A stretch of 44,420 bases of DNA. It comes from a virus (lineage: Duplodnaviria; Caudoviricetes). Under the pieces are notes generated by a model. That model did not search any database, had not been told where the DNA came from, and saw only the letters and a program-made list of their open reading frames with translations. Positions 2,157 to 44,420 of this stretch are shown here, piece by piece (the first letter of the stretch is position 1; the number at the start of each line of letters is the position of its first letter). Both the position numbers and the translations under genes were made by a program. Where the stretch lies: IMG/VR virus record IMGVR_UViG_3300028364_000057, positions 1 through 44,420 of that record; one strand, given 5' to 3'.

Positions 2157-5100
2157 TTAATTTGCCTTACGTAGTTCCTTATTGAGGTTGTCGGAGAAAA
2201 GAATAGGCACCATACTTCCGGCTTCTGTTCTGATCTTCCGTCGCCCTAGCTTGTAGAACTCTTGAAATGCTTCCTCTCCGATCTCTGCTTCTAGTTCAGT
2301 GAGGTATTGTACCTTGTCAGCATTTGAACGTAGTCGCATTATATCATCAACGTACTCATTATTGAGTCCGTACTGTCGATAAACTGCTAGTTCCTTACGT
2401 ACGTTGTTCCGTTGTAGGTCAGTAACCTTTCCGTTGTAGAGTTCGTCGATTAACTCATCCTCGATCTGTGAGATCGCACCACGTCCTTTATCGCTCGCTT
2501 CAAACTGCGCAACGGCGTTTGCCATCAGATCATCCTCCCGGAACTCTTTTACGTAGTCGGTATTCTCACTAATGATCCCTGACTCCTGCGATGTTGCCTG
2601 TAGCTCACGTGCTGCTTCGATATCACCACGTCCTACCATCCCTTGAATAGTCCTCCTGACGTCTGTGCGCCCGGCTGTGATGTTATCTTGTGCTTTCCAC
2701 GTTTGGACTCGTTGATCCCAAAGAATCGCTTCCTGAGTCGGTGTGTAGCCTGTAGCACGTATCAGCGCTTCCCATGTGTTGTACTTGTATGGATCACCAT
2801 TTGCATCTAGTAGTGGGTTCCCGGATGAACTACGTACTCCCCAACTGTAGCCAGTAACCGCTTTGATCGGGTTAGCGAATACGTCTGGTAGTAGTTTTCC
2901 GGCTGCGTCTGCATACCGTTGCTGTCCAAGCATGTCGATCCCTTGTGGTAGTCGCTTAAACAATAGTGATCCTGTTGCACCAATGTACGATCGAACGTCT
3001 GACGGGTTATCCAGGATAGAGTCAACTGTCATTAGTCCAATACCAACTCGACTGGATAGGTCAATCCCGGTGTACGCAGCTGGAATACCACGGGTAAGTG
3101 CTATTTCCCATGTATCTAGCTCTCGCATGATCTCTTCTTCGTCCCGGTCGTCCCCTACTAGCTTCCTGAATATCTCGATCATTAGTTTTGCGAATGGTAG
3201 CGCTGTGACTCCACCAATAACACTGGTATATGCCATCTTTCGTGTTAGCGCTACGAACTCTCCCCGTGAAGCGTCACGGTATAGCTGGAATAGGAACGAT
3301 CGAATGTAGTGTTGGAAGACAAACACAACTGCTAGTCGTCCCCGGAACGCCCGTGGTCGGTGCTGTCGTCCGTATCGGAAGTGGATATCATCTGAGACTT
3401 CTTTTGATTTCCGCTGTGCTTCGGCGTTGGTCATACCCTGCGCTTTGAAGTGTCGGTACATCGCTAGGAATGATGGAATACGGTTGATATTCTGCTCAAC
3501 GATCGCTGTACTCTTGAATAGCAGCTTACTGAACCGTGAACTGATCTCGCTATAAACCGGGTTATTCTTAAATCCAGTTAGCTCGGCTGACATTTCAGCG
3601 CCTAAGTGTCCCTTTTTCAGCATTTGGTCGATCACTATACGCTCATGCGCTGATATCCTGCCACTAGAGTAGTCAAACATCGCTTTCACCAGGTCTTTCT
3701 CAGGACCAGCAATCTTTCCTGCACCCTCGTAGTACTTACTCATTTCACCAAGTCCAACAATGAAGTTCTGGGTTGCGTTGGTTGCTAGGTAGGACAAGTC
3801 GTTCGCTAGGAAGTAGGCAAACGTCATACCACGCATACTGATACTCATAGTCTGATCCTTTCCAGTAGGGATCGGGATGTAGATATCCTCTGGTTTGTTG
3901 TTCAGCTTGTAGATAATAGCGTCACGCTGCCATGCAAAGAACTCTGGCTGTCGTCGTGCGTCGATCTTAGATAGCGCATCGAAGTACGCAGTCGAGTGAC
4001 GCATCTTTGAAATATACCCACTAAATCCACTAAAGTAGTTGGCAATAACTTCTGGTGTGCGGTTGGTATCGTACCCTCCTACACCTGTTCGGCGTAGATA
4101 GTGGCGTCCAAAACCTTTCTCCTTAAACATATCAACCAATTGGTTGCGTAGAATACGTGATACATCGTCCCGGATGAATCCTTTCTCTTTCATGTTCTCG
4201 ATCACTGGGATCATACGTTCTGAGGTTAGCTCTTGCGATCCAAAGAAGTCCACCTCTAGGCTCTGTAGTTTGTCGATCTCGAACCGAGTCAGTGCATCTT
4301 GGCTCTCATTAGCTAGCTGCTGGGACCGTTCTTGTGCTAGTTTCTCAGTCTTGAATGACTCCATCAGGTACGTTTGGTACCCTCCGCCCTCGTTCATCTT
4401 CTGGTGCTTGACCACATACGGGTACTTCCACTTGTGCGGCATGTAGCCTTTACGTTCTTGTCTGAAAGCGTCAATCTCTGCTTCTTCCATACCCTTGCCA
4501 CGCATTTCCTGTAGCAGCATTTCGTGAGCAACGTCCAGCGCATACCGTACACCCTTGTACGCTTTTTGCTGTTGAGTAGTCATACCCATCTGGATGATCT
4601 CTTGGTCGCTGAACTCTTTACCTAGTGAGTCACCTCTCCATAGAATCTCATCGACTCTAGCTCGATCTTTACTTTTCAGCTTCATGTAGTCCTGGATGTT
4701 TTCTGCCATCATAGCGTCGAGCATTTCCTTGTCTGCATCCTGGTTCTCAGCCACTGTCTCGTATAGATCAGCTGCCTTGAACTCTTCCGGGTCTTTCAGG
4801 TAGAGATCACGTGACTGCGCTAGCAGGTTCTCGAACATATTTATGTCCTTGCGCACACTGTTAATGACCTCCGGTTGGTTTACCGACTGATCCAGGATTG
4901 AATTGAATAGTGCCTGACGTCCAAGTGAGTCTTCGTAGTCTTTCTCACGCTTTATCGCACCAAAGTCTAGGTATTTAATACCGTCTGGTGTCTCGAACCG
5001 TACCCGTGCTGCTCGTACCGGGTTAGCGTGTAATTTAATACTCTGTCGTTTGTTTTTCCCGGTAGCAACTGCAAAGTAGAACTTCTGTAGTCCTGGTAGA

Positions 5101-8100
5101 TCACGTCCTAGTGCTGCGTTCACCTTTACCATAGCGTCGTATAGTGCCTGGTAGAAGCGTCCCATCATAGTTGTCTGTCCCATTTCACGCCGGGCAACGT
5201 ACCCCTCGAATCCAACAGCAATTTTCTCTTCTGCTGCTACTCGTTGTCCTGCTGTCTTTGGCATTACACCACCGTTAGCAGTCTTTAGCAGCGCATCCAT
5301 GTTGAACTCCATGAACGGGTCGATCTTTCCAACTAGGTTTCGTAGGACCAAGTGGATCATTTCGTGATCTGGTGTTGTCTTGGTACTGAATGTAGGGAAC
5401 GCCATACCCATGTTGTATGACACACCGTATGCTCGGACCATTTCAATACGTCCGTGGACTAACTCTTGCTCTCCGGTATAGATGGTATCAACAAACTCCA
5501 CTGGGAAGTCCAGCTTGAATCGTCGCTTGTAGTCTGCAAGGCGCTCTGTGATCTCACCAGGCATCGCTGCGGTCATTTTGTACTGATACTCCAATGCCGC
5601 ATCCCTACCCTGCTTACGGTCGATATTTGCCGCTTTAATAGGGTTGTACTCTGAGACTCTACCCTTTCGGTTGACTCGTCGCTCTGTCGCTCTTGAACTG
5701 ACCAAGTTGTTCATCATTGTCTCTGTCTCTGACAAGTCCGGGACCGTTTGACTGTATGATCCAAGGAACTTCCCGGTTTCAGTGTCTCGAATCGGTACTG
5801 TCTTCACTCTAGCGTACAGTGGTGTCTCTTCGAGCATCATCCGTTCTCCGTTGCGTGAGATAACTGTGACGTCGTTAGTGTCGAATACTACATAGTTAAA
5901 TGTCTGCTCTTCCTGGTTTCGAGTGAATCCATCAGCGTATTTCACACCTTTAATACCGTATTCTAGCATCGCCTTACTTGCACCCTCTTGCCCTCCAAAG
6001 ATAGTAGAAGCCACACGGTAGAACTCACCACCAGTACTGCTACCCTCTGGGTTCAGTCGAGAATCGCTTTGTTGTAGTGCTTCAGCTGCGAATCGTCGGA
6101 TTTCTGCGCTTTGGTTAGCCATTGGTTCGTCCCATAGCAACATTGTCTCAATTGCTGCATCTTCGATCTCTAGCTCGTATAGGTACGCTGCTGAGTTCTC
6201 ACGGTTCCATCCTCGGAACTGCATAATGAAGTCGATATTCTTTTGGTTTGGATAGGTTGAATGTGTTCGACGTCCCTCGTATTGCTTAGTGTCCTTGTTA
6301 TAGCTCTCCACTGTTACTTCAAATAGTCCAACTGCTGGGTTCATGTCTAGTGCAATCACTCGATCTGTCTTTCCTCCCCAACTAGGTACTGTTTCACCTA
6401 CAGTAAAGTACTCTTGCAGCAATTCTGCCTGTGCTGACTCCTGGCTAGTGTCGATGGTTCGATCTCCCTTAGTGTACGTGCCTGGTTTTGCTGTTTTCTT
6501 TGTCTTTTCCACGTCCCTGTAGACGGTTGATACTGTCTCTGTGTCAGCACTATAGAATCCCCAACCAAACGCTTGGTTGCCCTCGCCTGTGTTTACAAAA
6601 TCAGTACTAGGCTGCGTGAACTCTGCGCCTGATCCGTGCCAAGTTCGTTTGTATTGTGGTGCGTGCGCTAGTGCGTAGATCGTTTCCAGCTGCTCTCTGG
6701 TTTTGATTTGGAATGGTTCAAACGCTACGTATTCTGATACTCCCTTTCCAAAGTCACTAACTACACCGTCATATCCGGCTTCTTTAATTAAATCCAGGTA
6801 CTCAGGATCATTAAATAGAAGATCTTCAAACTCCATGATCTCAGCAATACCTATGTTTTCGTCGATCCACTCTAGCGCTTCCTTGCTGTCAGTGATCTTC
6901 TCGCCGGTCATAATCTCATATAGCAGCGGCGCTTGGTCTTCGTTTGAGAATACCGCTGACTGTCGTAGGTCAATTGGATTTGCGACTGATAGGTATACTT
7001 CCTTGATCTTCATTTCCCGTTCATCACCTTTTGGTCGTGTTTTCTCTATAAAGTCTGGGATGTAGCTCTTATCATCACCCTTTAGGAAGAAGAATCCCCA
7101 ACTAGTATCTGCAGCTTCTGTATTGCTGCCCTTTTGTTTGTGATCGAATACCTCAAAGTCTGCCAGTGTTCCGTGGTAGTGAGCATCACCCTGTGCCTCA
7201 ATAAAGCTCTCCACCGTGTCATGCTCGGTAGCTTCTGCAAACAACTGATCCTGGACCTCTTGATCGTATGAACGCTTGGCACTGAACATAGCGTCGTCAC
7301 CAATAAACATATCGCTGTTTTCAGCCTTACGCTCGGTAGTGTACTCAGTGTAGTCAACCTTTCCGACGGTACTCATCTGGGTTTGCTTCTCAATAGCAGC
7401 CTTTTCTAGCGCTACGATCTGCTCTTCCTTGATAGCTTCACGCCGGGCAAGTCGCTCGTCGATCTTAGCTTCGTTCTTGGACATGTTCTCTTCGATGCTG
7501 CCAATATCAACTCCACGGTCTTTTAGCATCTGCGCTACATTAGCCAGTCGTTCTTGTGCATTTTTGATAGTAGACTCCAACCAATCCCAATTTGGGTTCT
7601 CTGCGTATCGTTCCTTGGCTTTGCGTACATCCTCCCACGCTTTGATATATTGCTCGTTCTTACGGTTGCTGTAGGCAAACTCGGACTCTAATCGACTGAT
7701 CTCGATGCCAATTTCCTGCTCTTTCATCTGGTACTCCAACTTGGTTCGATGTACCGGGTCAGTCAATAGGTTCTGCATCAGCTCTGTGTAGTCGATATCT
7801 CCGATCTCCACCACGTCGTCACCGGCTTTGATTGACTCTTCGTAGCGCTTCTCTTTGTTCTTTAGCTTCTGCGCCATGAAGATATCTACTGAGTTTTCAG
7901 TAAACATCTGGTTCACACGCACGTTTCGCCACTTGTTACCCTGTCTCCACGCTCGTCCGATCACTTGCCGGACCGCTGTAAAGTTCCACGGCTGCGATAG
8001 CATGTAGATATCAGTAGTTCGTTCCTGTAGGTTCACTCCCTCTTGGATAGCGTCTGACCCAATAATGACCTTGACCTTACCAGCGTTAAAATCTGCTTGA

Positions 8101-11100
8101 ATCTTGGGGCGGTTCTTCTTTGGTGTTTTACCACTAATGATCTTCACTTGATCCGCTTTGAGTCCCACTTCCTCGATCAGATACTTCTCAATGTATGGGA
8201 AGTACTCCACCCCAAGCGTTGAATAGATCAGCTGTCCTGAGTCTTTTACGTCCTTTAGTGTCTGCTTCACCAACTCCATTGTCAGCTTGATCTTAGGTGA
8301 TCCCTCGACAAACTGCTTGGCTGTTGGTGTTGGACCACTGTAGAAGCGACTCATGTACGGAGAAAAAGCAATTGCACGTAGCTCTCTGATCCCTTTAAGT
8401 ACACCTCCATCTTTTTTATCGTTGAATAGTGGTTGTGCTGCTGCCTTGAAGTCGTACTGATCCTGGTTTTCTGGTATCCGGAACTCACGTGTTTGTCGGT
8501 CTGGTCGCACGATCCCTGCATCTTTACCGTCCCGGAAGTCGATAAACTGTGTCAGTAACTGTTGGAACTGTTGGTAGTTCTTGAAATTACGTACATCAGG
8601 CTTCTCAGAATAGTCACCATTGGCTTTGAACTCCAATTGTGAGGTTACATCCATGAACATCGACATAAAATCGTTCACGTTCAAAATACCCATATCCTCC
8701 ATTGTCTTGCGAGCGAAGAGTGATAGGACTGAGTAGTACTCTAGTGGATGGTTTGTGAATGGTGTAGCAGACAATCCGATCACGTTTCGTCCGTTATTCT
8801 TCTCCTGGATGTATTGCGCAGCTAGCCACGTCTTTAGCCCGTATTGTGATGGTTTCAGCTGGAATCCCCGGAACTCGGTTGTTTTAGCGTCTTTATCTTT
8901 TGGCTTGGCTTTACCAATGATGTGGTTGGCGTTGTGGATCTCGTCGATAGTAAGCGCATCGAATCCTAAGTCCTCGAAGTACCGGTCGTTATCAGTCCCA
9001 CGCATCATCTTTCCAACTGTTTCCTCACCAGCGGCTTTGTCTACTTCTCGTTGTCGCTTGGTTTTGGCTGCATCAGGCTGCTCGATCACGTCATTGAATA
9101 GCGCAGTCGCTGTGTTGTAGGTTTCATCCTTGAAGCGTAGCTTCTTAAATCCCTCTTCTGTTACTAGTGAAAGTGTACCCTCTTCAATCTCTAGCGTTGC
9201 GTAGTCACCTTTGAAGTCTTCACCAAGGTTGGCTAGCTCGTTGATCTTTATATCAGGACTGATCTCTTGTATCTCAGTGATCCACTGTTTGTACACGTTA
9301 ATGTTTGGTAGAACGATCAGCGGCTTCTTAGCCCACCCTCTTTCGAGCATTTCCAAGTTGGCAACAATCCCCTGCATAGTTTTACCTAGCCCAACATCAT
9401 GTGCGAGTAGTCCTACTCCACGGTTCATAAGAAAACCAACTCCGTACTGCTGTACTTCCCGGAGATCTAGCGGCTTGCCTTTGAACGTACTTGATACGAT
9501 CGCTCGTAGTGGGACCTGTCTATAATCAGGCTTGTAGTACCCGTTAAACGCTGTGTTGTACTTCTGCTCAACCTCTGCCTGCTGCTCAGGTGTTAGCTCA
9601 TCTTTTAGGAACTTACTAAACAATTCATCACCTACTGTCCGCCTAGTCCGTCGATCCTGTTCGTTTTTCAGCTTGTCACTACCTCGGACCGGCGTACCGT
9701 TGGTGTACCCTCGAACGTCATACTGTGAAGAATCACCGAACGCTGACTGTGGTAGGTCTTTGATCCAGCCAAGGAACCGTTGCTGCAGCGACTTGTTTGC
9801 TAGCATTGTCACCTCAGCAAATCGTGTGTGTGGTGAGATACGCATACGATTAACTGTCATACGCTCAGGAATAACCGCTTCTAGCATCGCTTTTTGCTTT
9901 TCGTACTTCTCAGGTGTTAGCTCTGACTTGTCAGCTTCCAGCGTATTGAGTCGAGAATAGATGTTTCCTTGCACGTAGTTGAACTCGTTATAGTACTTCC
10001 CGTCCATGTAGAACGCTGTATCTGCATTAAAGTCTCCGGCTAGCTCTCCGGTTGGTTGTACGTACTCCCACTGTCCATTGTCGTACGCATCGACGTCAGT
10101 AAAGGTTCTCAAGTCTAGCTTACCCTTTGGCACTGGTTTGTATTCTCGTTTCGGTCGTTTCGCTTCACGGGTTTCTTTCTTGATATCAGCGCCCTCTTGC
10201 TCAATCCGACGGCTCTGTTCGTCTACCGGCTCTAGTGTCTCAGTCTTCTGCATTTCTTTATGTAGGTTCTCATCAGTCAGCGTTTTCAGCTTCTCACTAG
10301 AATCAACTGGTTCTTTCACCTCTTTACCGTTGGTTTCAATTTCTGCTTGTGTGTCTAAGTCCACGTATGTCTCACTCACAATCGCTGAATTGCTTGGTAG
10401 TGCTGCAAAGTCAGTAGTATTAAATAGCTCAATCGCTGCTTCTAGTGATCCGTCAACAAACGCTTCCTGCCCAAACCGCCCGGACCGCATACCCTCGTCA
10501 CCTAGAACGTGGTTGATATTGGACCGGAAGTACATATCATCGCTGGTTGTACGCATCCGGGACGCAAAGATAGCCATACCTGACTGACTCTTCATGTCTT
10601 TGATCGCTTTCTTTTGGAATACCAGGATGTCAGTACCGATATCAGTGGTATCAAACGCACCGTTAGGTAGTCGCATAGCTGCAACCAACTCGCCTAGCTC
10701 GGCAATTGCTTTCTTTCCAGTCTCAGTATTGCCGTTGCGCAGGAACGCTGACGGGACCACCATCGCAACGTAGCCGCCCTCCTTGGTGATATCGAGTGAG
10801 CGCTTAATAAAGTAGTTCTCGTACTTACTGATCTTCGACTCTTCACCTAATCCTTTGAATAGCCCTCTGTGCTTTCCGTATGGTGGGTTACCAACTACCA
10901 GGTCAGTCTCAGACTTGTACGGTAGCTTCTTCCCGGTTTCATCCATGAATAGGCGCTCGAACGGTTGATTGAGGACCGCTATATCAGAACGCTTGGTTTT
11001 TAGTGCCTGTGACGCATCTGTGTCGATCTCGAACGCAATTACGTTGGCGCTGCTTGGTACACCCTCCAGGAAGTTACCGACTCCGGCTGCTGGTTCTACG

Positions 11101-14100
11101 ACGTTCTTACCCTCTAGGTTGAGTCCTAGCTTTCGCAGGATGTCATACGTCATTTTGACTGCTTCTGGTGGTGTCCAGTACTGATCGAGTAGCCCTCTAC
11201 CCTCTGCACCATCACGCTCTCGTCCTCCAGCTGGTACAAAGTCTGCTGCTTCCTTTATCTCAGCTTGGCTTGGTTCCTTGGTCAAGTCCACCTCGAATAC
11301 GTCGATCCCTAGATCGTTCTTGTGCTTGGTGACTGGTGCCAGCGCATCTGCAGCAAGTTCCTCTATGCTTTGCTCTGCATTTCCTCCCTCGTTTTCCGTT
11401 GCTTCCTCCCCTCTTGCATCGCCATTAGCATCTTTTGTTTCACTTTTTTTAGGTGGTTCGATGATTGTTGCGTTTTCATAGATGTCGATTATTTGTTTTC
11501 GTAAATCTGCAGTACTAAAATCACTACCAATTCTGATAGATAGTTGTTCGTCCAGCTGCTCGAATAAAGCATCTGCAAGTAGTCGTCGCTTGGTTTCGGT
11601 TGTTTTCTTTGGATAAGAGAACGAACGGACGTCGTCAAAGGTGTCTAGCGCATACTTCACATCGTCTGAGGTACGTGCGTTATCAGGAATCCAAGCCGGG
11701 AACGTAGATGGTACACCGTCCCATTGTCCACTGTCTCCTACCGGGAACCGATAACCTGGTTCTGCTAGCTCTAGTTCTACCAGTATTTCACTCAACACTT
11801 TCTCCGCTTTACTGTAGCCCTCTACGTCAGACTCACCAAGCGCAAGGTACATGGACCGCATATCACGCTCTAATGCTTCCACTTCCGCCCGTTCTACCGT
11901 CTTTGGTACTTCTTCCTGTGCTACTTCGATACTAGGCGCACTCTGAACGTCCAGGAATCCATGTGCTTTGAGGTTATCAGCCCATAGTGATAGAAATGAG
12001 TCTTTTGCCTTGATAGGGACCGCACCGCTTAATTCTCGCCCGTTTAGGACCATTGGTGGATGTTCGATGGTCTGCGCTACTAGTTGACCGTCATTGTCGA
12101 TCTGAAATACCACCTCCGGGTCACGCATGATGTCCCCGTTTTGTGTGTACACGTGTGACATAGCCAACCGGTTGTCACTAATACGCTCTATGTTTAGTGT
12201 CATGTAGCCCTCTCTCTTCACCTGGAAGTAGGTAGACTCGTTTTCTAGGTCTTCAAAGTTGTTCTTAAACATCTTTGTCACCGCCTTACCTAGCTTACTC
12301 TTTTGCTTCTCGTTGATCCTGGCTGTGGTGTTGTGCGTATATACTCCCTCAGCGTCCATACCAATACTCGCTTTACGGACCGTGATCTGTCGCATCGTGT
12401 TCTTTATTTTGAATCTACCATCAGTCCGTTTAGTGATTGTTGCACTATAACGTTTGTTATCCCCCCCCATTGGTATATCCGCAACCGCTTTTGTGATTGC
12501 AAGTGCTTCGTCGTATGTATACCCAGCTTCGTCGCTACCACTTATATAATCAGTGGCTGTTGGTGGGTTTCCAGCTTGCGCAAAGAAGTCAGCGACTACA
12601 CTCTCGATCGATCGCTCAGATGTCTCTACATCTTCCCCCTTTACGCTGCTGTCGCTAGATCGCTTTCCAGGCTCACTACTGCGCTGCTCACGCTTCCCCC
12701 GTGCCACTTCGTCGCTAGACTCTGTATTGCTTTCTCCTGGTACGGTCGATCCTGGTTCACTAACGCTGCCACTTTCGGAATCTTCTCGGCGTCGAATGTC
12801 TCGTTTAGTATCGTTATCGCTTTCATTGTCATTATTTTGCTGTTTATCGCTAGTATTGTCAAGTTTGTTCCACCAATCTAGTAGGTCAGTCCGGCTGAAT
12901 CCTTGCGCTGACTTTGCTTTGGACTTCTGCACGTCCTTAACAAACTGATCGAACGTCGGCGCTTCTTTAGCTAGTCCAAATAGTACTGGGTTCACATTGT
13001 TCATAGCAGCTTCACCGTCTGATAGCTTTGGATAACGTACTTTATCGTACTCCTGGACGTCTTCCGCTAGTTCTTTCTTGCTAGGTGTGAACTGTGTCTC
13101 TTGCTGTACATCATCAACAATGTTCTTTGCTTGGTTTGGGTCTTCCTTTCGAGCGTTTGGACTGACTGTTGCTAGGAAGTCTGACTCGATCTCACTCTGT
13201 CGATCAGCTGACTTCTCGATTTGATCCTGTAGGTTGGTAGCTTCTGTACCTTTTGCGGTCTTTGCTTTCTCCTGTAGCGCTGCTTGCTCTTCCTGGACCT
13301 GTCGGTACTCGTCTGCATAGTCACGCTCAAAGATATCCTGTGCTTCTGTGATCTGCTCTGGTGTCATGTTTTCTACACCCTCGAACGTATTGTCGTTGGT
13401 TGGTGTCTGGTTTCCTTGGACCATAGCAACTGCTCGGTCGATATCTGCTGTGATATCAGTCATATCACCCTGATCTTCCTCTCTCTGGTTATTAAACTCT
13501 TCTAGTGCCGCTTCCTGCTCGGCTGCGGTACGATCTGACTGAACATCCTGCTGGAACTGGCTATCTACTGCCCGTGCTGCGGTTTCAATGGCTGCTGGGT
13601 TCTCGGCTGCCAAGGCTTCTAGTGCGTCCATCTTAGCGTCTAACTCAGGACCAGGACCGTCTTCTGTTGCTTCTGACTGAGTATCTCCAACCGCTTCATT
13701 GACTGCTCGCCTAATCTCGTCACGGGTTCCCTCCGGTAGTGCGTCGATCATCCGTTCTGTATAGTCGTCTGCCGCTTCACGTTCTTCACGTGGTGTCATA
13801 GCCTTACCAGCTGCCTGGAATACCAAACCTCCGATCATACCAAGGATAAACGACTGCTGACTCTCTGTTCCAAAAATATCAAACTCTTCACCAAGCGCTT
13901 TCTTTGAAATATAGCTTTGGTATACCTCCTCCCCTCCCTCTGTAGCACCAGCGGCTGCCATTTCTAGCGCTTCTACTACGATCCGTCCCCAAATAGTCTT
14001 TGTACCAGCGGCAATCTTCCCAATAGGTGTTGCAGCTACTGCCAACTGAAACGCATCCAATCCAATTAGGTTCATGTTACCTCGATACACCTCAGCACCA

Positions 14101-14951
14101 GCACTAACAGCTTCTGCTTCGGTCATACCTTTAGCTTTGGCTGCTTCGTAGGTATCACCAGCTTCTGATAGTCCCTCAATCGGACGCATCACACCGGCAC
14201 CTGCTAGTGAACCAACTGCATACTGAACAAACAACGGGTACTTAGCCAGCATCGCTGTCTTTGCAACTGCACCTGTGACTCCTACACCGGGAATCATCAA
14301 CGCAAGACTAGGAACTAGCTGCTCTGGTGCCTTAGTTAGCCAAAAATCACCGTAGGCAAGCGCTGCTACAGGGTCTTCATTAAAAATACGGTCAATTTCT
14401 TTTGATCGTTCCGTCTGTAGCGCTGTCGTCATGCCCTCACCAGCGCCTGATAGCCATTCTCCGGCTTTAGAGTACGCTTTCCATAATCCACCACCTGATC
14501 CTAGTTTACTCCCCGTATCAGTCCCTTTTGCACCCAAATACGTTAAAGCAGAACCAAACATAGACGCAGTATTTCCAATACCACGGTTGGCTGACGCTAG
14601 TAATTCGTTCACTCCCCGGCTGTATGTGTTCCAGGCACCAGCTCTTTTCTTTTGCTCACGGTTGATATCACGGTTGATATCGCTGTCGATCCCACCAACT
14701 AGCTTCTGAATGTTCGGCGACGATGCTTGGTACGATGGCGCTTCAAACTTCTTGTTGGCGTTAGGGTTATAGTCCGGGACCGTATGTTGTTGACTCAAAA
14801 TAGCCTGGACCTGCCAAGCTGTATTGTATTTCTTAGCACCCTCACGGTCACCGCCTGTCCTGGCTGTTTCCATGCGACTTCTAGCTGGTGTAGGACGGGT
14901 AGGTGTGTCTGGTTCCGTCGTAATCTTAGAGAGGTCTATATTTCTTGACAT
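2157..14951 (-). CDS. 4264-aa DarB-like large polyvalent (probably virion-ejected) protein
   Basis: Gly/Ala hydrophobic N-terminus; DUF6908-like segment (GYMTLNIE..SHVYTQNGDIMRDPE); amino-MTase (YWTP, EPAAGVG, NPPY); SNF2-like helicase (HDVGLGKT, DEIH, SATP, QVIGRAWRQGN); two ART-PolyVal-like domains (YHGT, WHGS..GEGNQAFGWGFY); HEMIH; helical C-terminus. Confidence 0.88.
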   Translation of the reverse strand: MSRNIDLSKITTEPDTPTRPTPARSRMETARTGGDREGAKKYNTAWQVQAILSQQHTVPDYNPNANKKFEAPSYQASSPNIQKLVGGIDSDINRDINREQKKRAGAWNTYSRGVNELLASANRGIGNTASMFGSALTYLGAKGTDTGSKLGSGGGLWKAYSKAGEWLSGAGEGMTTALQTERSKEIDRIFNEDPVAALAYGDFWLTKAPEQLVPSLALMIPGVGVTGAVAKTAMLAKYPLFVQYAVGSLAGAGVMRPIEGLSEAGDTYEAAKAKGMTEAEAVSAGAEVYRGNMNLIGLDAFQLAVAATPIGKIAAGTKTIWGRIVVEALEMAAAGATEGGEEVYQSYISKKALGEEFDIFGTESQQSFILGMIGGLVFQAAGKAMTPREEREAADDYTERMIDALPEGTRDEIRRAVNEAVGDTQSEATEDGPGPELDAKMDALEALAAENPAAIETAARAVDSQFQQDVQSDRTAAEQEAALEEFNNQREEDQGDMTDITADIDRAVAMVQGNQTPTNDNTFEGVENMTPEQITEAQDIFERDYADEYRQVQEEQAALQEKAKTAKGTEATNLQDQIEKSADRQSEIESDFLATVSPNARKEDPNQAKNIVDDVQQETQFTPSKKELAEDVQEYDKVRYPKLSDGEAAMNNVNPVLFGLAKEAPTFDQFVKDVQKSKAKSAQGFSRTDLLDWWNKLDNTSDKQQNNDNESDNDTKRDIRRREDSESGSVSEPGSTVPGESNTESSDEVARGKREQRSSEPGKRSSDSSVKGEDVETSERSIESVVADFFAQAGNPPTATDYISGSDEAGYTYDEALAITKAVADIPMGGDNKRYSATITKRTDGRFKIKNTMRQITVRKASIGMDAEGVYTHNTTARINEKQKSKLGKAVTKMFKNNFEDLENESTYFQVKREGYMTLNIERISDNRLAMSHVYTQNGDIMRDPEVVFQIDNDGQLVAQTIEHPPMVLNGRELSGAVPIKAKDSFLSLWADNLKAHGFLDVQSAPSIEVAQEEVPKTVERAEVEALERDMRSMYLALGESDVEGYSKAEKVLSEILVELELAEPGYRFPVGDSGQWDGVPSTFPAWIPDNARTSDDVKYALDTFDDVRSFSYPKKTTETKRRLLADALFEQLDEQLSIRIGSDFSTADLRKQIIDIYENATIIEPPKKSETKDANGDARGEEATENEGGNAEQSIEELAADALAPVTKHKNDLGIDVFEVDLTKEPSQAEIKEAADFVPAGGRERDGAEGRGLLDQYWTPPEAVKMTYDILRKLGLNLEGKNVVEPAAGVGNFLEGVPSSANVIAFEIDTDASQALKTKRSDIAVLNQPFERLFMDETGKKLPYKSETDLVVGNPPYGKHRGLFKGLGEESKISKYENYFIKRSLDITKEGGYVAMVVPSAFLRNGNTETGKKAIAELGELVAAMRLPNGAFDTTDIGTDILVFQKKAIKDMKSQSGMAIFASRMRTTSDDMYFRSNINHVLGDEGMRSGRFGQEAFVDGSLEAAIELFNTTDFAALPSNSAIVSETYVDLDTQAEIETNGKEVKEPVDSSEKLKTLTDENLHKEMQKTETLEPVDEQSRRIEQEGADIKKETREAKRPKREYKPVPKGKLDLRTFTDVDAYDNGQWEYVQPTGELAGDFNADTAFYMDGKYYNEFNYVQGNIYSRLNTLEADKSELTPEKYEKQKAMLEAVIPERMTVNRMRISPHTRFAEVTMLANKSLQQRFLGWIKDLPQSAFGDSSQYDVRGYTNGTPVRGSDKLKNEQDRRTRRTVGDELFSKFLKDELTPEQQAEVEQKYNTAFNGYYKPDYRQVPLRAIVSSTFKGKPLDLREVQQYGVGFLMNRGVGLLAHDVGLGKTMQGIVANLEMLERGWAKKPLIVLPNINVYKQWITEIQEISPDIKINELANLGEDFKGDYATLEIEEGTLSLVTEEGFKKLRFKDETYNTATALFNDVIEQPDAAKTKRQREVDKAAGEETVGKMMRGTDNDRYFEDLGFDALTIDEIHNANHIIGKAKPKDKDAKTTEFRGFQLKPSQYGLKTWLAAQYIQEKNNGRNVIGLSATPFTNHPLEYYSVLSLFARKTMEDMGILNVNDFMSMFMDVTSQLEFKANGDYSEKPDVRNFKNYQQFQQLLTQFIDFRDGKDAGIVRPDRQTREFRIPENQDQYDFKAAAQPLFNDKKDGGVLKGIRELRAIAFSPYMSRFYSGPTPTAKQFVEGSPKIKLTMELVKQTLKDVKDSGQLIYSTLGVEYFPYIEKYLIEEVGLKADQVKIISGKTPKKNRPKIQADFNAGKVKVIIGSDAIQEGVNLQERTTDIYMLSQPWNFTAVRQVIGRAWRQGNKWRNVRVNQMFTENSVDIFMAQKLKNKEKRYEESIKAGDDVVEIGDIDYTELMQNLLTDPVHRTKLEYQMKEQEIGIEISRLESEFAYSNRKNEQYIKAWEDVRKAKERYAENPNWDWLESTIKNAQERLANVAQMLKDRGVDIGSIEENMSKNEAKIDERLARREAIKEEQIVALEKAAIEKQTQMSTVGKVDYTEYTTERKAENSDMFIGDDAMFSAKRSYDQEVQDQLFAEATEHDTVESFIEAQGDAHYHGTLADFEVFDHKQKGSNTEAADTSWGFFFLKGDDKSYIPDFIEKTRPKGDEREMKIKEVYLSVANPIDLRQSAVFSNEDQAPLLYEIMTGEKITDSKEALEWIDENIGIAEIMEFEDLLFNDPEYLDLIKEAGYDGVVSDFGKGVSEYVAFEPFQIKTREQLETIYALAHAPQYKRTWHGSGAEFTQPSTDFVNTGEGNQAFGWGFYSADTETVSTVYRDVEKTKKTAKPGTYTKGDRTIDTSQESAQAELLQEYFTVGETVPSWGGKTDRVIALDMNPAVGLFEVTVESYNKDTKQYEGRRTHSTYPNQKNIDFIMQFRGWNRENSAAYLYELEIEDAAIETMLLWDEPMANQSAEIRRFAAEALQQSDSRLNPEGSSTGGEFYRVASTIFGGQEGASKAMLEYGIKGVKYADGFTRNQEEQTFNYVVFDTNDVTVISRNGERMMLEETPLYARVKTVPIRDTETGKFLGSYSQTVPDLSETETMMNNLVSSRATERRVNRKGRVSEYNPIKAANIDRKQGRDAALEYQYKMTAAMPGEITERLADYKRRFKLDFPVEFVDTIYTGEQELVHGRIEMVRAYGVSYNMGMAFPTFSTKTTPDHEMIHLVLRNLVGKIDPFMEFNMDALLKTANGGVMPKTAGQRVAAEEKIAVGFEGYVARREMGQTTMMGRFYQALYDAMVKVNAALGRDLPGLQKFYFAVATGKNKRQSIKLHANPVRAARVRFETPDGIKYLDFGAIKREKDYEDSLGRQALFNSILDQSVNQPEVINSVRKDINMFENLLAQSRDLYLKDPEEFKAADLYETVAENQDADKEMLDAMMAENIQDYMKLKSKDRARVDEILWRGDSLGKEFSDQEIIQMGMTTQQQKAYKGVRYALDVAHEMLLQEMRGKGMEEAEIDAFRQERKGYMPHKWKYPYVVKHQKMNEGGGYQTYLMESFKTEKLAQERSQQLANESQDALTRFEIDKLQSLEVDFFGSQELTSERMIPVIENMKEKGFIRDDVSRILRNQLVDMFKEKGFGRHYLRRTGVGGYDTNRTPEVIANYFSGFSGYISKMRHSTAYFDALSKIDARRQPEFFAWQRDAIIYKLNNKPEDIYIPIPTGKDQTMSISMRGMTFAYFLANDLSYLATNATQNFIVGLGEMSKYYEGAGKIAGPEKDLVKAMFDYSSGRISAHERIVIDQMLKKGHLGAEMSAELTGFKNNPVYSEISSRFSKLLFKSTAIVEQNINRIPSFLAMYRHFKAQGMTNAEAQRKSKEVSDDIHFRYGRQHRPRAFRGRLAVVFVFQHYIRSFLFQLYRDASRGEFVALTRKMAYTSVIGGVTALPFAKLMIEIFRKLVGDDRDEEEIMRELDTWEIALTRGIPAAYTGIDLSSRVGIGLMTVDSILDNPSDVRSYIGATGSLLFKRLPQGIDMLGQQRYADAAGKLLPDVFANPIKAVTGYSWGVRSSSGNPLLDANGDPYKYNTWEALIRATGYTPTQEAILWDQRVQTWKAQDNITAGRTDVRRTIQGMVGRGDIEAARELQATSQESGIISENTDYVKEFREDDLMANAVAQFEASDKGRGAISQIEDELIDELYNGKVTDLQRNNVRKELAVYRQYGLNNEYVDDIMRLRSNADKVQYLTELEAEIGEEAFQEFYKLGRRKIRTEAGSMVPILFSDNLNKELRKAN

Positions 14952-26720: not shown

Positions 26721-26735
26721 AGGCGTTGTTAAACT

Positions 26736-26815
26736 TACTTGATAAAGCCCGTTTGTGAGCTATGCAAGAGAGGAACCCACGCTCCCTCCCTTGCACAACC
26801 CACAATGAGTTGTGC
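26736..26815 (-). terminator. Hairpin cluster after the major capsid gene (stabiliser or weak terminator)
   Basis: GCACAACUCA/UGGGUUGUGC, UGCAAGGGAGGGAGC/GUUCCUCUCUUGCA and AGCUC/GGGCU; G-U pairs favour the minus strand. Confidence 0.6.
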
Positions 26816-26824
26816 CAATACTGA

Positions 26825-27844
26825 CTAGGTATCGAATGATCCGATGATCCCACGTGGTGAGACTGCTCGGTAGGCGTATCCGGCACGTACACCGAATGTC
26901 CATACGTCTGCAGAATAATCGTGGTTTGCACCAGTCTCGTTGGTTGGTGCTTCCTTGAATCGTGGTGCTTCCCACATTCCAAGGTACGCTTGCCATCCCA
27001 TTTGACCTTGACCAATAGATGCTAGGAACCAGTACTTCTCTTTTCCAGAGTCCCGGTTACCGTTAGCGTCAGTTGCTAGGTACGGCAGCTCGATGTGAGT
27101 GTACTTCCCTTTGTACATGTTCATCACATTAGAGTTGTCCTGCCCTACTTCTGCGCCTGAACCAAGCAATTGCCGCACAATGTTGCAAGTGTTTGGATCG
27201 TCAGACGTGATAATAGCGTTGAATCGCATTACCCGGCGTTCTCCGAAGTGAGAGAGAATACTTGTCTTGGTCAGCTTTTCAGCTGCTTCAAGTCCTGCTT
27301 TACCAATAACAGGATCACTAGCCACACGGTTGGAGAAAGTGAGAGAGCTAAACTTCAATGTGTGTGCTGCGTTGATAAGTGATAGTCCATCACCTACTGC
27401 AACGTCTACTGAGTCACCATCCATATCGACGTATGAAGTGGCACCTGAGAAGCCAAGTACATGGCTACCATCAAGTTCCATACGTTGAGGACAGAAGTGA
27501 ACTAGGCTAGTAATAAGGGTACCGACTTCAGAATAACGGTTTTCATCCCGCATTTCCTGAGTAATGTCGATTTCCATAGCGACACGCTTTTTAATCATGT
27601 CTACTGAGTAGCCAACACCTACGCTAGCTTTCTTTGACTTCTCAGCTTCTCGCTTGCCACGGGCAAACGTCTGAGTGTCGATTTCAGTGTATCGCTTGGA
27701 TTTTCCTTGTCCTTTTCCAATCGGTTCCATGATGAACAGCTGATTGACCGTAGGCGCAACTTTCTCTGAGTGAGTTACGAACTGTCGGCGAATCAGATCA
27801 GTCATTTCCGGAAGCGAAATGGTATTGAGCAAATTAGTTTCCAT
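26825..27844 (-). CDS. Major capsid protein (HK97 fold, Mu gpT-like)
   Basis: 339 aa; DGLSLINAAH, YWFL, and C-terminal FGVRAGYAYRAVSPRGIIGS; position downstream of scaffold and decoration genes. Confidence 0.8.
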   Translation of the reverse strand: METNLLNTISLPEMTDLIRRQFVTHSEKVAPTVNQLFIMEPIGKGQGKSKRYTEIDTQTFARGKREAEKSKKASVGVGYSVDMIKKRVAMEIDITQEMRDENRYSEVGTLITSLVHFCPQRMELDGSHVLGFSGATSYVDMDGDSVDVAVGDGLSLINAAHTLKFSSLTFSNRVASDPVIGKAGLEAAEKLTKTSILSHFGERRVMRFNAIITSDDPNTCNIVRQLLGSGAEVGQDNSNVMNMYKGKYTHIELPYLATDANGNRDSGKEKYWFLASIGQGQMGWQAYLGMWEAPRFKEAPTNETGANHDYSADVWTFGVRAGYAYRAVSPRGIIGSFDT

Positions 27845-27881: not shown

Positions 27882-28310
27882 CTAGGTGGTTGCTACGTTG
27901 ACACTACCTGCAAGTGCGTTGACAACTACTACAGCTTTACCAGTTGAGATAAAGTCTACAATCGTTACTACGTCCTTAGCAGAAGCATCAGGGTCTACTC
28001 CAGCGCCGTTTGCTACGAGGTCACAAGTGTTTCCTACATCAGCAGCCGCTAGATCATCGTTTGGCACATCTACTTCGAGTCGAGTCTGACCGTCAATAAC
28101 ATCAACAGGCACACGTGTCTCTTCAGCATAGTCAGCATCAGTTGCAAGGACATCTCGCAAGATAATACCGAGGTGGTTACCGGAAGTAGCGTCAGCCGGG
28201 ATGATTTCACCAGTACCATTGGCGTATACCAGTCCACCATTGGTGAACACAGTAGAAGCAGCCTTTTTGAAGTACTCGATGTTTGGTCGTCCGTTTTGTC
28301 GTTTGAACAT
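27882..28310 (-). CDS. Capsid decoration/cement protein
   Basis: 142 aa A/D/V-rich beta protein immediately upstream of the capsid gene. Confidence 0.6.
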   Translation of the reverse strand: MFKRQNGRPNIEYFKKAASTVFTNGGLVYANGTGEIIPADATSGNHLGIILRDVLATDADYAEETRVPVDVIDGQTRLEVDVPNDDLAAADVGNTCDLVANGAGVDPDASAKDVVTIVDFISTGKAVVVVNALAGSVNVATT

Positions 28311-28529
28311 AAAATTGAAACTACAGTGAATAATGAATCTTGAACTAAAAAAAACACTACCAACAATGGTGTGTCCTACGGTCGTTTTCTTGCGTGGTGA
28401 CCAACCCAGATAAGTTCAGGAACCGTTTTGCGTGATCGGTAACAGTGAATTGTGTGTGCCTGTCAGATCGTGAGTGTTGGAACACCGAGTAAACTCAGTG
28501 TCCCTCACTCGCTCTCTGCACAAGGTACT
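28311..28529 (-). ncRNA. Structured ~220-nt capsid-operon leader or sRNA
   Basis: Long hairpin GGGACACUGAG/CUCGGUGUUCC, two CACGCAA-loop hairpins and an internal terminator. Confidence 0.55.
28347..28376 (-). terminator. Intrinsic terminator within the leader (attenuator-like)
   Basis: GGACAC-ACCA-UUGU-UGGU-A-GUG followed by 8 U. Confidence 0.6.
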
Positions 28530-28534
28530 CCGTT

Positions 28535-28543
28535 ACTATAGCA
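28535..28543 (-). promoter_or_regulatory. Extended -10 promoter TGC-TATAGT
   Basis: Predicted +1 at ~28529, the base of the first hairpin. Confidence 0.6.
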
Positions 28544-28583
28544 CACAACACCTGGACCATTTTGGTCAAGTGGACAATATGGT

Positions 28584-28592
28584 TGTGGATAA
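28584..28592 (-). promoter_or_regulatory. DnaA-box consensus TTATCCACA
   Basis: Exact 9-mer in intergenic DNA ~40 bp upstream of the capsid promoter. Confidence 0.4.
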
Positions 28593-28701
28593 GGTGCCTA
28601 CGCTGAGGTAAAGGGGTAGTCGAGTATAAGTCGGCTGAAAGCACGTATTCCCCTCAGTCACTGGCCTTTATTCCGTGCTTACCCCAGCGTAGAAACCTTA
28701 T
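28589..28701 (-). ncRNA. 113-nt end-paired pseudoknotted RNA, unknown family
   Basis: AUAAGGU/ACCUUAU and CUACGCUGGGGUAA/UUACCUCAGCGUAG closing stems; GCACG/CGUGC crossed by AGGGG/CCCCU; own -10 element. Confidence 0.6.
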
Positions 28702-28707
28702 TTATTA

Positions 28708-28716
28708 AATATATCA
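28708..28716 (-). promoter_or_regulatory. Extended -10 promoter TGA-TATATT
   Basis: Predicted +1 at ~28701, the first base of the closing stem. Confidence 0.5.
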
Positions 28717-28755
28717 CAAACAAAGCAGCTTCCACTTTGGTTATGTGGAAGCTGC
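28717..28755 (-). terminator. Intrinsic terminator of the terminase-portal-scaffold operon
   Basis: Perfect 11-bp stem GCAGCUUCCAC/GUGGAAGCUGC then UUUGUUUG. Confidence 0.8.
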
Positions 28756-28854
28756 CTTAATAGAAAACAGGCTAGCAGCTGAAAGCATAGCCCGTTTTCT
28801 GAGAGTATTTACACACCCGAATTGTCACGAATGTTACAAAGTGACAATCGTATA

Positions 28855-29682
28855 CTACTCTTTATTTTCAAGGATTTCCAGCATTTTCTTCACAGGTAGC
28901 TCGCTTTTTACGTCACTCACTCCCCACAGCTTACGTTCTCCGTCGATCTTCACCTGTTCGATGATCGACAACAGCGTTTTCGTTACATTGTCTACCGTGT
29001 TTCCAATAACTGAGAAGACAGATGCTGCTTCGAGAAACGTAATGTTGTGCTTCTCGAACGTCGGCACGATGATGCGGCGCATGATATCCCGGAAGACTAC
29101 GAACCCTTTTGAGTGTTTGTAGACTATATCTTCTAGGTAGGCTTGCATCTTCTGCGCCCTGGCTTCTATTTCCTTTAGTTTAACTGGATCGTCAGTATTC
29201 CCGGCTTCCACACCAAGCGCATGTAGCTTCCTCTCCACCTTGTCCATTTCCTCAGTCTTATTAAAGTCACGTTCACTAGGCGTTAGGTTCGACTCTTCTG
29301 CGATCAATCCCATTATCTCAATCGCACAGGCGACTACTCGCTCGTCAAACTTCACGTCAGTAGTAACTTCTTCAAGCAGATTGGAAGTGGTGGTCAATAA
29401 CTGACAAAGGTACTGCACATCACCATAGCGTAGGTCATTATCAGTAATAATGGTACGCATGTTCTCAGCAACAAACGTCCGGTACTGCTCATGCTCTTTG
29501 TCCTGCTTGCTTTTGTTGTCGTAGTCTTCTGTCTTGTAGTTATGTTTGAAGTCAAACGTAGCCATCTGACGGAACACCTCGTTGACTACCGGGACCACTC
29601 GATCCTTACGCTCTTGCGTAAAGTCTCGCTCGATCCCTAAGTCTTTCTTCTGTTCTTCGTTCAGTTGTTGTGGGTCAGACAT
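28855..29682 (-). CDS. Hypothetical helical protein with a loose internal duplication
   Basis: 275-aa ORF with TATG start in operon. Confidence 0.7.
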   Translation of the reverse strand: MSDPQQLNEEQKKDLGIERDFTQERKDRVVPVVNEVFRQMATFDFKHNYKTEDYDNKSKQDKEHEQYRTFVAENMRTIITDNDLRYGDVQYLCQLLTTTSNLLEEVTTDVKFDERVVACAIEIMGLIAEESNLTPSERDFNKTEEMDKVERKLHALGVEAGNTDDPVKLKEIEARAQKMQAYLEDIVYKHSKGFVVFRDIMRRIIVPTFEKHNITFLEAASVFSVIGNTVDNVTKTLLSIIEQVKIDGERKLWGVSDVKSELPVKKMLEILENKE

Positions 29683-36562: not shown

Positions 36563-36765
36563 TGCCCGTGAATGGATTTGCACCATTGAGATAGAGGAAG
36601 TGAGGTGGTTGAACTAATTCATTTAGTTTTGAATACTCACCGTTACTGTATAGCCTTGATCCGGCTCCACACCGGACTAGTGGAGATTGTTGATTACAAC
36701 GTAGTGATCTTTACGATCGAAAAATGTCTCCCTCTATCTTTCTGCATGGCTGATATGCCACGGGC
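36563..36765 (-). ncRNA. 203-nt tRNA-like RNA with a large insert in place of the anticodon loop
   Basis: Acceptor GCCCGUG/CACGGGC+A; T arm AAUGG-UGCAAAU-CCAUU; GCAU/AUGC arm; 12-bp AGAUAGAGGGAG/CUUCCUCUAUCU stem. Confidence 0.72.
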
Positions 36766-36797
36766 AGGTGCTGGTAGTCGTACGTACCAGCTCTTTG

Positions 36798-36806
36798 ATT
36801 ATAACA
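36798..36806 (-). promoter_or_regulatory. Extended -10 promoter TGT-TATAAT for the tRNA-like RNA and packaging operon
   Basis: Perfect TGn-TATAAT just after a terminator; predicted +1 at ~36791. Confidence 0.7.
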
Positions 36807-44176: not shown

Positions 44177-44253
44177 AATAAAAAATTGCGCCGAGCTTCG
44201 CTCCCTATCACATATAGGTTCCGCCGCCGGATCACTTGTATAGTTGAATATAT

Positions 44254-44281
44254 AAGAAAACCGCCAGCGTATGGCTGACGG
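44254..44281 (-). terminator. Terminator of the late minus-strand operon, at the convergence point
   Basis: CCGUCAGC-CAUAC-GCUGGCGG then UUUUCUU; lies downstream of tad2 on the circle. Confidence 0.7.
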
Positions 44282-44420
44282 CTCTCTGACTCTTCCTACA
44301 CGTGGCAGGTGAGCTGGTTAGTCCTGTAGGACTACCCAATCTTCTTCCAGTAGGTCTGTTTGTGAAGCTAGCCACGGGACCTGGTTATCATCTGCTGTCT
44401 TCATGTAGATGTAAGGCAGC
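44266..44420. repeat. Terminal direct repeat, right copy
   Basis: Matches 1-155 with one mismatch; implies a 44,265-bp circular or permuted genome. Confidence 0.97.

Follow-up and report, generated by a model that had tools for sequence, protein, structure and literature searches.

Phage small RNAs and related pseudoknotted RNAs

RNAC and RNAD of phage T4 are small non-coding RNAs that are transcribed late and are described as being of unknown function (PMC9697503). The element analysed here, an end-paired structure of 113 nt that is a candidate small RNA (positions 28589-28701, minus strand), resembles them in being a small non-coding RNA of a phage, but the T4 RNAs have been shown to be transcribed whereas the element is predicted. 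Both were compared with it only through a BLAST search of 50,697 phage records, which gave no match.

ToxI and CptI consist of tandem H-type pseudoknots of 36-45 nt with single-stranded ends, and their toxin is encoded adjacently (PMC4627078). In common with them, the element would be a pseudoknotted RNA working by protein binding, which in its case is a prediction. Unlike ToxI and CptI as they are described there, it is present in single copy, is paired at its ends and has no toxin gene beside it. Racr are viral accessory small RNAs that act as decoys mimicking CRISPR repeats (PMC10651486); they share with the element, as far as that account goes, the character of an accessory RNA and, by prediction, that of a decoy, but the element matches no CRISPR-repeat family.

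HDV-like and theta ribozymes, which are also found in phages, present the same order of strands as the element (A 5', B 5', A 3', hairpin, B 3'), and the catalytic C is the first base of their J4/2 junction (PMC10879173). Compared with the ribozymes of that report, the element has no nested second pseudoknot and no C opening the last junction, and a long end helix is added. The put RNA of HK022, a double hairpin of 65 nt needed for lytic gene expression, is a structured RNA located right behind a phage promoter and before a terminator (PMC8632103). This position is shared by the element which, in contrast to put RNA as reported, is end-paired and dispensable. No paper describing the RNA of this locus was found in the literature searches.

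The phage genome and its probable host

The window, that is, the whole stretch of 44,420 nt analysed (IMG/VR record IMGVR_UViG_3300028364_000057), contains a complete phage genome of 44.4 kb with a terminal repeat of 155 bases. Nearly all the long genes are carried by the minus strand, and the gene content includes small and large terminase subunits, a replication initiator and a DarB-like polyvalent protein of 4264 aa. The latter (window 2157-14951) contains methylase, SNF2 helicase and ART-PolyVal domains and is likely an injected anti-defence cargo. DNA of the phage was found in metagenome runs from lakes and salt lakes; the 24 runs listed include no RNA run and have no bearing on expression.

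The element sits in a gap of 544 bases (28311-28854) between genes encoding proteins of 275 and 142 aa. Homologs of the 142-aa protein weakly match a phage cement family (two of the three tested, below the cut-off). The 339-aa gene that comes next matched no family and no solved structure; from its position, its size and the weak cement match in homologs of the preceding gene, we infer that it encodes the major capsid protein. Relatives of this gene occur in three genome records, two titled Gammaproteobacteria and one Bacteroidia. The two Gammaproteobacteria-titled genomes and three kin measure about 1 Mb and lack COX1 (0/5) and ribosomal protein L30 (0/5), a combination of small size and missing genes that we take to be characteristic of Patescibacteria. 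For these reasons the host is likely Patescibacteria-like, and the phage contigs in those genomes may be misbinned. In a sample of the likely host phylum, genome sizes are 0.7-2 Mb among the 20 entries listed, and RNase III is present in all five genomes of the likely host group.

Structure of the element

All the helices named in the initial annotation (the paired ends, GCACG/CGUGC crossed by AGGGG/CCCCU, and AGCCGA/UCGACU) were located in the sequence, and the element is real. The end helix is formed on the minus strand by a 5' arm (28679-28701) and a 3' arm (28589-28611), which constitute an inverted repeat with pair probabilities of 0.99-1.0. In the numbering of the 113 nt it comprises 7 pairs (1-7/107-113) and 15 pairs (9-23/91-105). 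The pairing of the ends, previously put at about 21 bp, is therefore right in kind and amounts to 22 pairs, since one U.G had been omitted.

The helix GCACG/CGUGC (28641-28678, in which 28678-28674 pair with 28645-28641; 24-28/57-61 of the 113 nt) encloses an invariant loop of 28 nt. It is absent from the nested folding ensemble, so that its support is one covarying pair, changed from G-C to A-U in the allele L051 and in the metagenome run X4. The crossing helix AGGGG/CCCCU (28612-28654, with 28654-28650 paired to 28616-28612; 48-52/86-90) reaches pair probabilities of 0.7-0.99, and its stacking on the end helix is predicted; it shows no covariation because it is invariant in all three alleles. 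Since the latter helix is invariant and the former is not favoured by the nested ensemble, the pseudoknot is a prediction, and both helices, each with one line of support, could be alternative states. The small hairpin AGCCGA/UCGACU (28618-28636; 66-71/79-84), detected by helix search and allele comparison, carries an invariant C.A mismatch, and the pair 65:85 that flanks it is C.A, C-G or U.G depending on the allele.

Folding of the minus strand of the 113 nt gives -42.9 kcal/mol (z -4.0) and that of the plus strand -42.2 kcal/mol (z -4.3); in either case none of 200 shuffles was as stable. Among 1108 segments of 113 nt the one containing the element ranks sixth in energy. A crossing arrangement of two 5-pair helices that directly abut the end helix appears in 0.11% of 20,000 shuffled cores with Watson-Crick pairs and in 2.1% when G.U is allowed, for a pattern that was defined after the fact. 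An alternative pairing (45-50/94-99 with 17-22/84-89) was rejected as 9-19 kcal/mol worse in its nested parts; it is a possible folding intermediate.

No ORF was found in the element. Antisense partners in the phage genome do not exceed chance (the longest is 10 nt, and at least 10 nt was reached in 30 of 100 shuffles), and no pairing longer than 6 nt was found between the element and the leader downstream of it. An exact direct repeat of 10 bases links a junction of the element (28634-28643) to the loop of hairpin H2 (28778-28787); it is lost in L051 and is probably due to chance.

Other stretches of the window are structured as well. A tRNA-like fold on the minus strand (36564-36766) contains a 7-pair acceptor-like stem, a D-like hairpin and a T-like arm, with about 110 additional bases closed off by a 12-pair helix, and it lies behind a terminator and an extended -10 box at 36806. 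It is missed by ARAGORN at default settings and had no BLAST match in seven relatives. Positions 44177-44420 and 26721-26860, which are non-coding or gene-end, also fold strongly.

Natural alleles and strand

A metagenome scan with the 142-aa protein returned four loci, L049-L052. With respect to the element of the window, L049 is identical, L050 differs in one base and L051 in 10 of 113 bases; L052, with 51% protein identity, has no element. The comparison thus concerns three distinct alleles, which align free of gaps. In L051, six of the 10 changes make three both-sided pair changes (6:108 from G-C to C-G and 7:107 from U-A to G.U, both in the end helix, and 24:61 from G-C to A-U). The other four fall in loops or in the flanking pair 65:85, and not one pair is broken. 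Seven of these changes are also seen in run X4. The helices had been named before any allele was compared, and when ten substitutions are placed at random three both-sided changes are expected with a probability of 4e-5 and no broken pair with 5.5e-4. The shuffle control of the covariation tool, applied to three sequences, was not significant (53/500), and the adjacent changes 6:108 and 7:107 could be a single event. The homolog comparison suggested as a check supports the fold through the pair-preserving changes, within the limits of three alleles.

Bases 25-60 (36 nt) are invariant across the three alleles. In the 278 bases downstream of the element the window and L051 differ by one indel. 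The element is therefore far more diverged between alleles than its downstream flank, which fits the exchange of an accessory locus. The promoter region is also altered in L051, where a TG-n-hexamer still lies 7 bases ahead of the same start.

With respect to the strand, the evidence had been called mixed. This holds for the window allele, in which, if the plus strand is read, the invariant C.A and one further C.A would become wobbles, but not once L051 is included: L051 contains four G.U pairs on the minus strand versus one on the plus strand and folds 5.5 kcal/mol better on the minus strand. The minus strand is for this reason favoured by the allele comparison.

The element might instead be a functionless hairpin insert, selfish DNA or debris, among the several variable hairpins of the gap. 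We consider this unlikely. The gap does have three other hairpins in the window, L051 shows one more and an inverted loop, relatives carry unrelated long hairpins at this place, and both strands of the window allele fold alike. However, the both-sided changes include the 5-pair inner helix and a G.U, which would not be expected from inverted-repeat repair. A MITE is not a good description either, because a segment of about 20 promoter bases beyond the 5' arm varies too, the genome holds a single copy, and only TT appears to be common at the junction as a target duplication, a comparison in which six letters of strain X5 were unseen.

Promoters, terminators and leader

An intrinsic terminator lies upstream of the element, outside the cassette (28717-28758, minus strand). 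Its hairpin (28758-28722, z -5.3) is the one terminator returned by the terminator search. It is followed by the extended -10-like box TGA-TATATT (28708-28716), for which no -35 partner was found. The predicted start, A28701, is the 7th base after the box, and with either promoter version it coincides with the base that opens the end helix. The layout of terminator, TGA-TATATT and start on the first base of the closing stem is accordingly present as first described. Further upstream, two more hairpins past the 275-aa gene (28762-28848, minus strand) were delimited by inverted-repeat and folding analysis. Both L051 and X5 have the 9-base loop of the terminator (window 28722-28758; L051:99-145) in inverted orientation. 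In L051 the terminator is preceded by an inserted hairpin of 36 bases that carries a separate -10-like box, and a loose end of X4 that had been taken for a second RNA cassette was discarded in favour of such an insert.

The cement/capsid operon is preceded by a structured leader (28347-28530, minus strand) with pair probabilities above 0.9, at the start of which, at 28543, the promoter search placed a second extended -10-like box (28535-28543, minus strand). The leader ends in a terminator hairpin (28374-28347) located 36 bases ahead of the 142-aa gene, about 240 bases away from the element, and this is the first terminator downstream of it. Because no terminator belongs to the element itself, transcription from 28701 would yield about 355 nt of RNA unless processing occurs, and a discrete RNA of 113 nt would need processing. 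The insulation attributed to the element is consequently real upstream and lacking downstream.

The leader is 75% identical across 116 nt in L011 and L012, and many relatives have analogous hairpin-plus-terminator leaders. Leaders of 10 loci had no Rfam match. The stretch 28347-28543 may be a late-gene attenuator, and its homologs are numerous enough for an analysis of covariation. The sequence TTATCCACA (28584-28592, minus strand), which we take to be the DnaA-box consensus, is the only perfect box in the window and overlaps the last 4 bases of the element. A DnaA-box-like site within one mismatch is found in the same gap in 15 of 43 relatives, versus about 0.13 expected per gap, and the order terminator, box and promoter is repeated in several of them. 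Control of late genes by the host DnaA, or an origin, is possible.

The arrangement raises a cis-acting role, in which the element would be a 5' module and second promoter of the cement/capsid operon whose fold stabilises the transcript or drives a put-like read-through of the leader terminator. We regard this as a serious though rather unlikely explanation. No terminator separates the element from the leader, the leader terminator stands just ahead of the 142-aa gene, and put RNA (PMC8632103) provides a promoter-proximal phage precedent. On the other hand, put RNA is described as a double hairpin whose ends are not paired, attaching the element does not change how well the leader terminator folds (pair probability above 0.9 in both cases), and X5 and all the relatives searched keep the leader without the element.

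Presence and absence of the element

Four metagenome runs were compared: X3 and X4 have the element, X5 is devoid of it, and X11 does not cover the site. The X5 evidence is one contig with flanks 96-99% identical, in which position 28592 is joined to the terminator after six letters. Its geometry is the L051 layout minus 135 letters, which correspond to the -10 box and the element, with one mismatch and a distance of 38 letters to 28762. X5 retains the terminator, then TTATCCACA, then the second promoter.

The element was absent from the more distant relatives (0/32 by DNA search and 0/42 with the model R1, the 42 records taking in neither L050, L052 nor G009). R1 found nothing past the four carriers in 50 sources, one match of 12.9 bits in 20 stretches of seven phage records, and none in bacterial genomes (0/61 and 0/151). 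Five IMG/VR pattern scans yielded 1, 3, 0, 11 and 4 loci, all 19 with at most 11 bits by R1, and a GTDB pattern scan yielded none. When the gap or the element was searched by BLAST against the phage records (50,697) and plasmid records, nothing beyond short chance matches was returned. In redundant sequence totalling 1.63 Mb, a loose topology descriptor picked out about 19 further sites, none of them evidently alike. Distant homologs may escape R1, which was built on three near-identical sequences.

Because X5 has neither the element nor the -10 box, and every more distant relative searched is without the element, the latter is, by genome comparison, a dispensable accessory cassette. The simpler interpretation is that this lineage acquired it; X5, represented by one contig, may show the ancestral state or a later loss. 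The closest IMG/VR relative has in the same gap an unrelated rod of 95 bases in which a terminator is nested (L011:2105-2200).

Comparison with catalogued RNA classes

At the gathering cut-off, Rfam 15 had no match in the window; between 28200 and 29000, searched to E 10, there were six matches, all far below the cut-off and none spanning the element. The element belongs to no Rfam family, and its fold is in no catalogued family for a comparison that covers Rfam; large sets of candidate motifs, such as that of PMC8040213, exist beyond Rfam. ARAGORN found no tRNA or tmRNA gene.

In the hammerhead core, stem II is preceded by a conserved heptamer and followed by GAAA. The heptamer is absent from both strands of two alleles, and the plus-strand GAAA is lost in L051. 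HDV-like ribozymes are built on a nested double pseudoknot with P3, L3 and P1.1. A loose descriptor of this type found nothing on four strand and allele combinations, while 10 of 60 shuffles pass it. Twister, twister sister, pistol and hatchet gave no match with the Rfam models. The previous statement that the element does not fit hammerhead, HDV, twister or pistol is in agreement with these Rfam models and descriptors.

A self-cleaving ribozyme of an undescribed class, cutting the read-through transcript, is nonetheless conceivable and in our opinion quite improbable. The predicted junction is compact and pseudoknotted with invariant, unpaired, purine-rich strands, and cleavage would provide the missing RNA end. 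Ribozymes are often located near phage genes, and new classes have been discovered in that way, as reported in PMC6765202. Against it are the empty Rfam searches for ribozymes to E 10, the lack of a hammerhead core and of HDV-like descriptor matches, and a helix order that is HDV-like, yet without P3/L3 and the catalytic C. In its boldest form, which we likewise think improbable, the element would represent the first example of a previously undescribed class of small catalytic RNAs: an end-closed pseudoknot carrying its own promoter, excising itself from the capsid transcript and moving between strains of a Patescibacteria phage as a 130-base cassette.

A stable phage sRNA had been proposed, with an antitoxin or Cas mimic as examples. 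The structured RNA is upheld by the pair-preserving changes of L051 and by the persistence of a modified -10 box ahead of the element, but the two examples are not. Phage mimics of type III antitoxins exist. However, the tandem repeats of such antitoxins have no counterpart here, the unit being unrepeated in 28200-29000 and elsewhere in the genome, and none of 301 genomes from the phylum of the likely host had ToxN over the cut-off, with one weak broken match, in a search that covered ToxN among the toxins and in which the controls were also 0/14. With respect to a Cas mimic, no CRISPR-repeat family matched 28200-29000 to E 10.

Proposed function and significance

By elimination of the other classes, our tentative proposal, to which we give somewhat less than an even chance, is that the element encodes a stable accessory RNA that would serve in trans as a decoy, binding an RNA-binding protein of the host. 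The host RNA polymerase would start at 28701 from the extended -10 box and read about 355 nt, as far as the leader terminator at 28347. A protected RNA would then result from RNase III cleavage within the 22 pairs of the end helix or from trimming of the 3' end up to it, and because the RNA would begin at the base that opens this long helix, both of its ends would be shielded. The predicted pseudoknot would display the invariant 36-nt core (25-60) as a binding surface, and this core is likely the binding face in such a model. Patchy presence and diverged alleles are reminiscent of arms-race loci, and the element appears to be selectively kept, yet dispensable.

The significance of the element is limited by the absence of distant homologs in the searches. 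With three natural alleles, a natural null strain and a short length, it offers inexpensive experimental access. Strain-variable phage loci usually encode proteins; if the proposal is true, an accessory cassette that encodes only an RNA, one with an uncatalogued pseudoknot, would point to an RNA-binding defence or regulator of the host, in Patescibacteria-like small-genome bacteria, the probable hosts, whose interactions with phages are little known.
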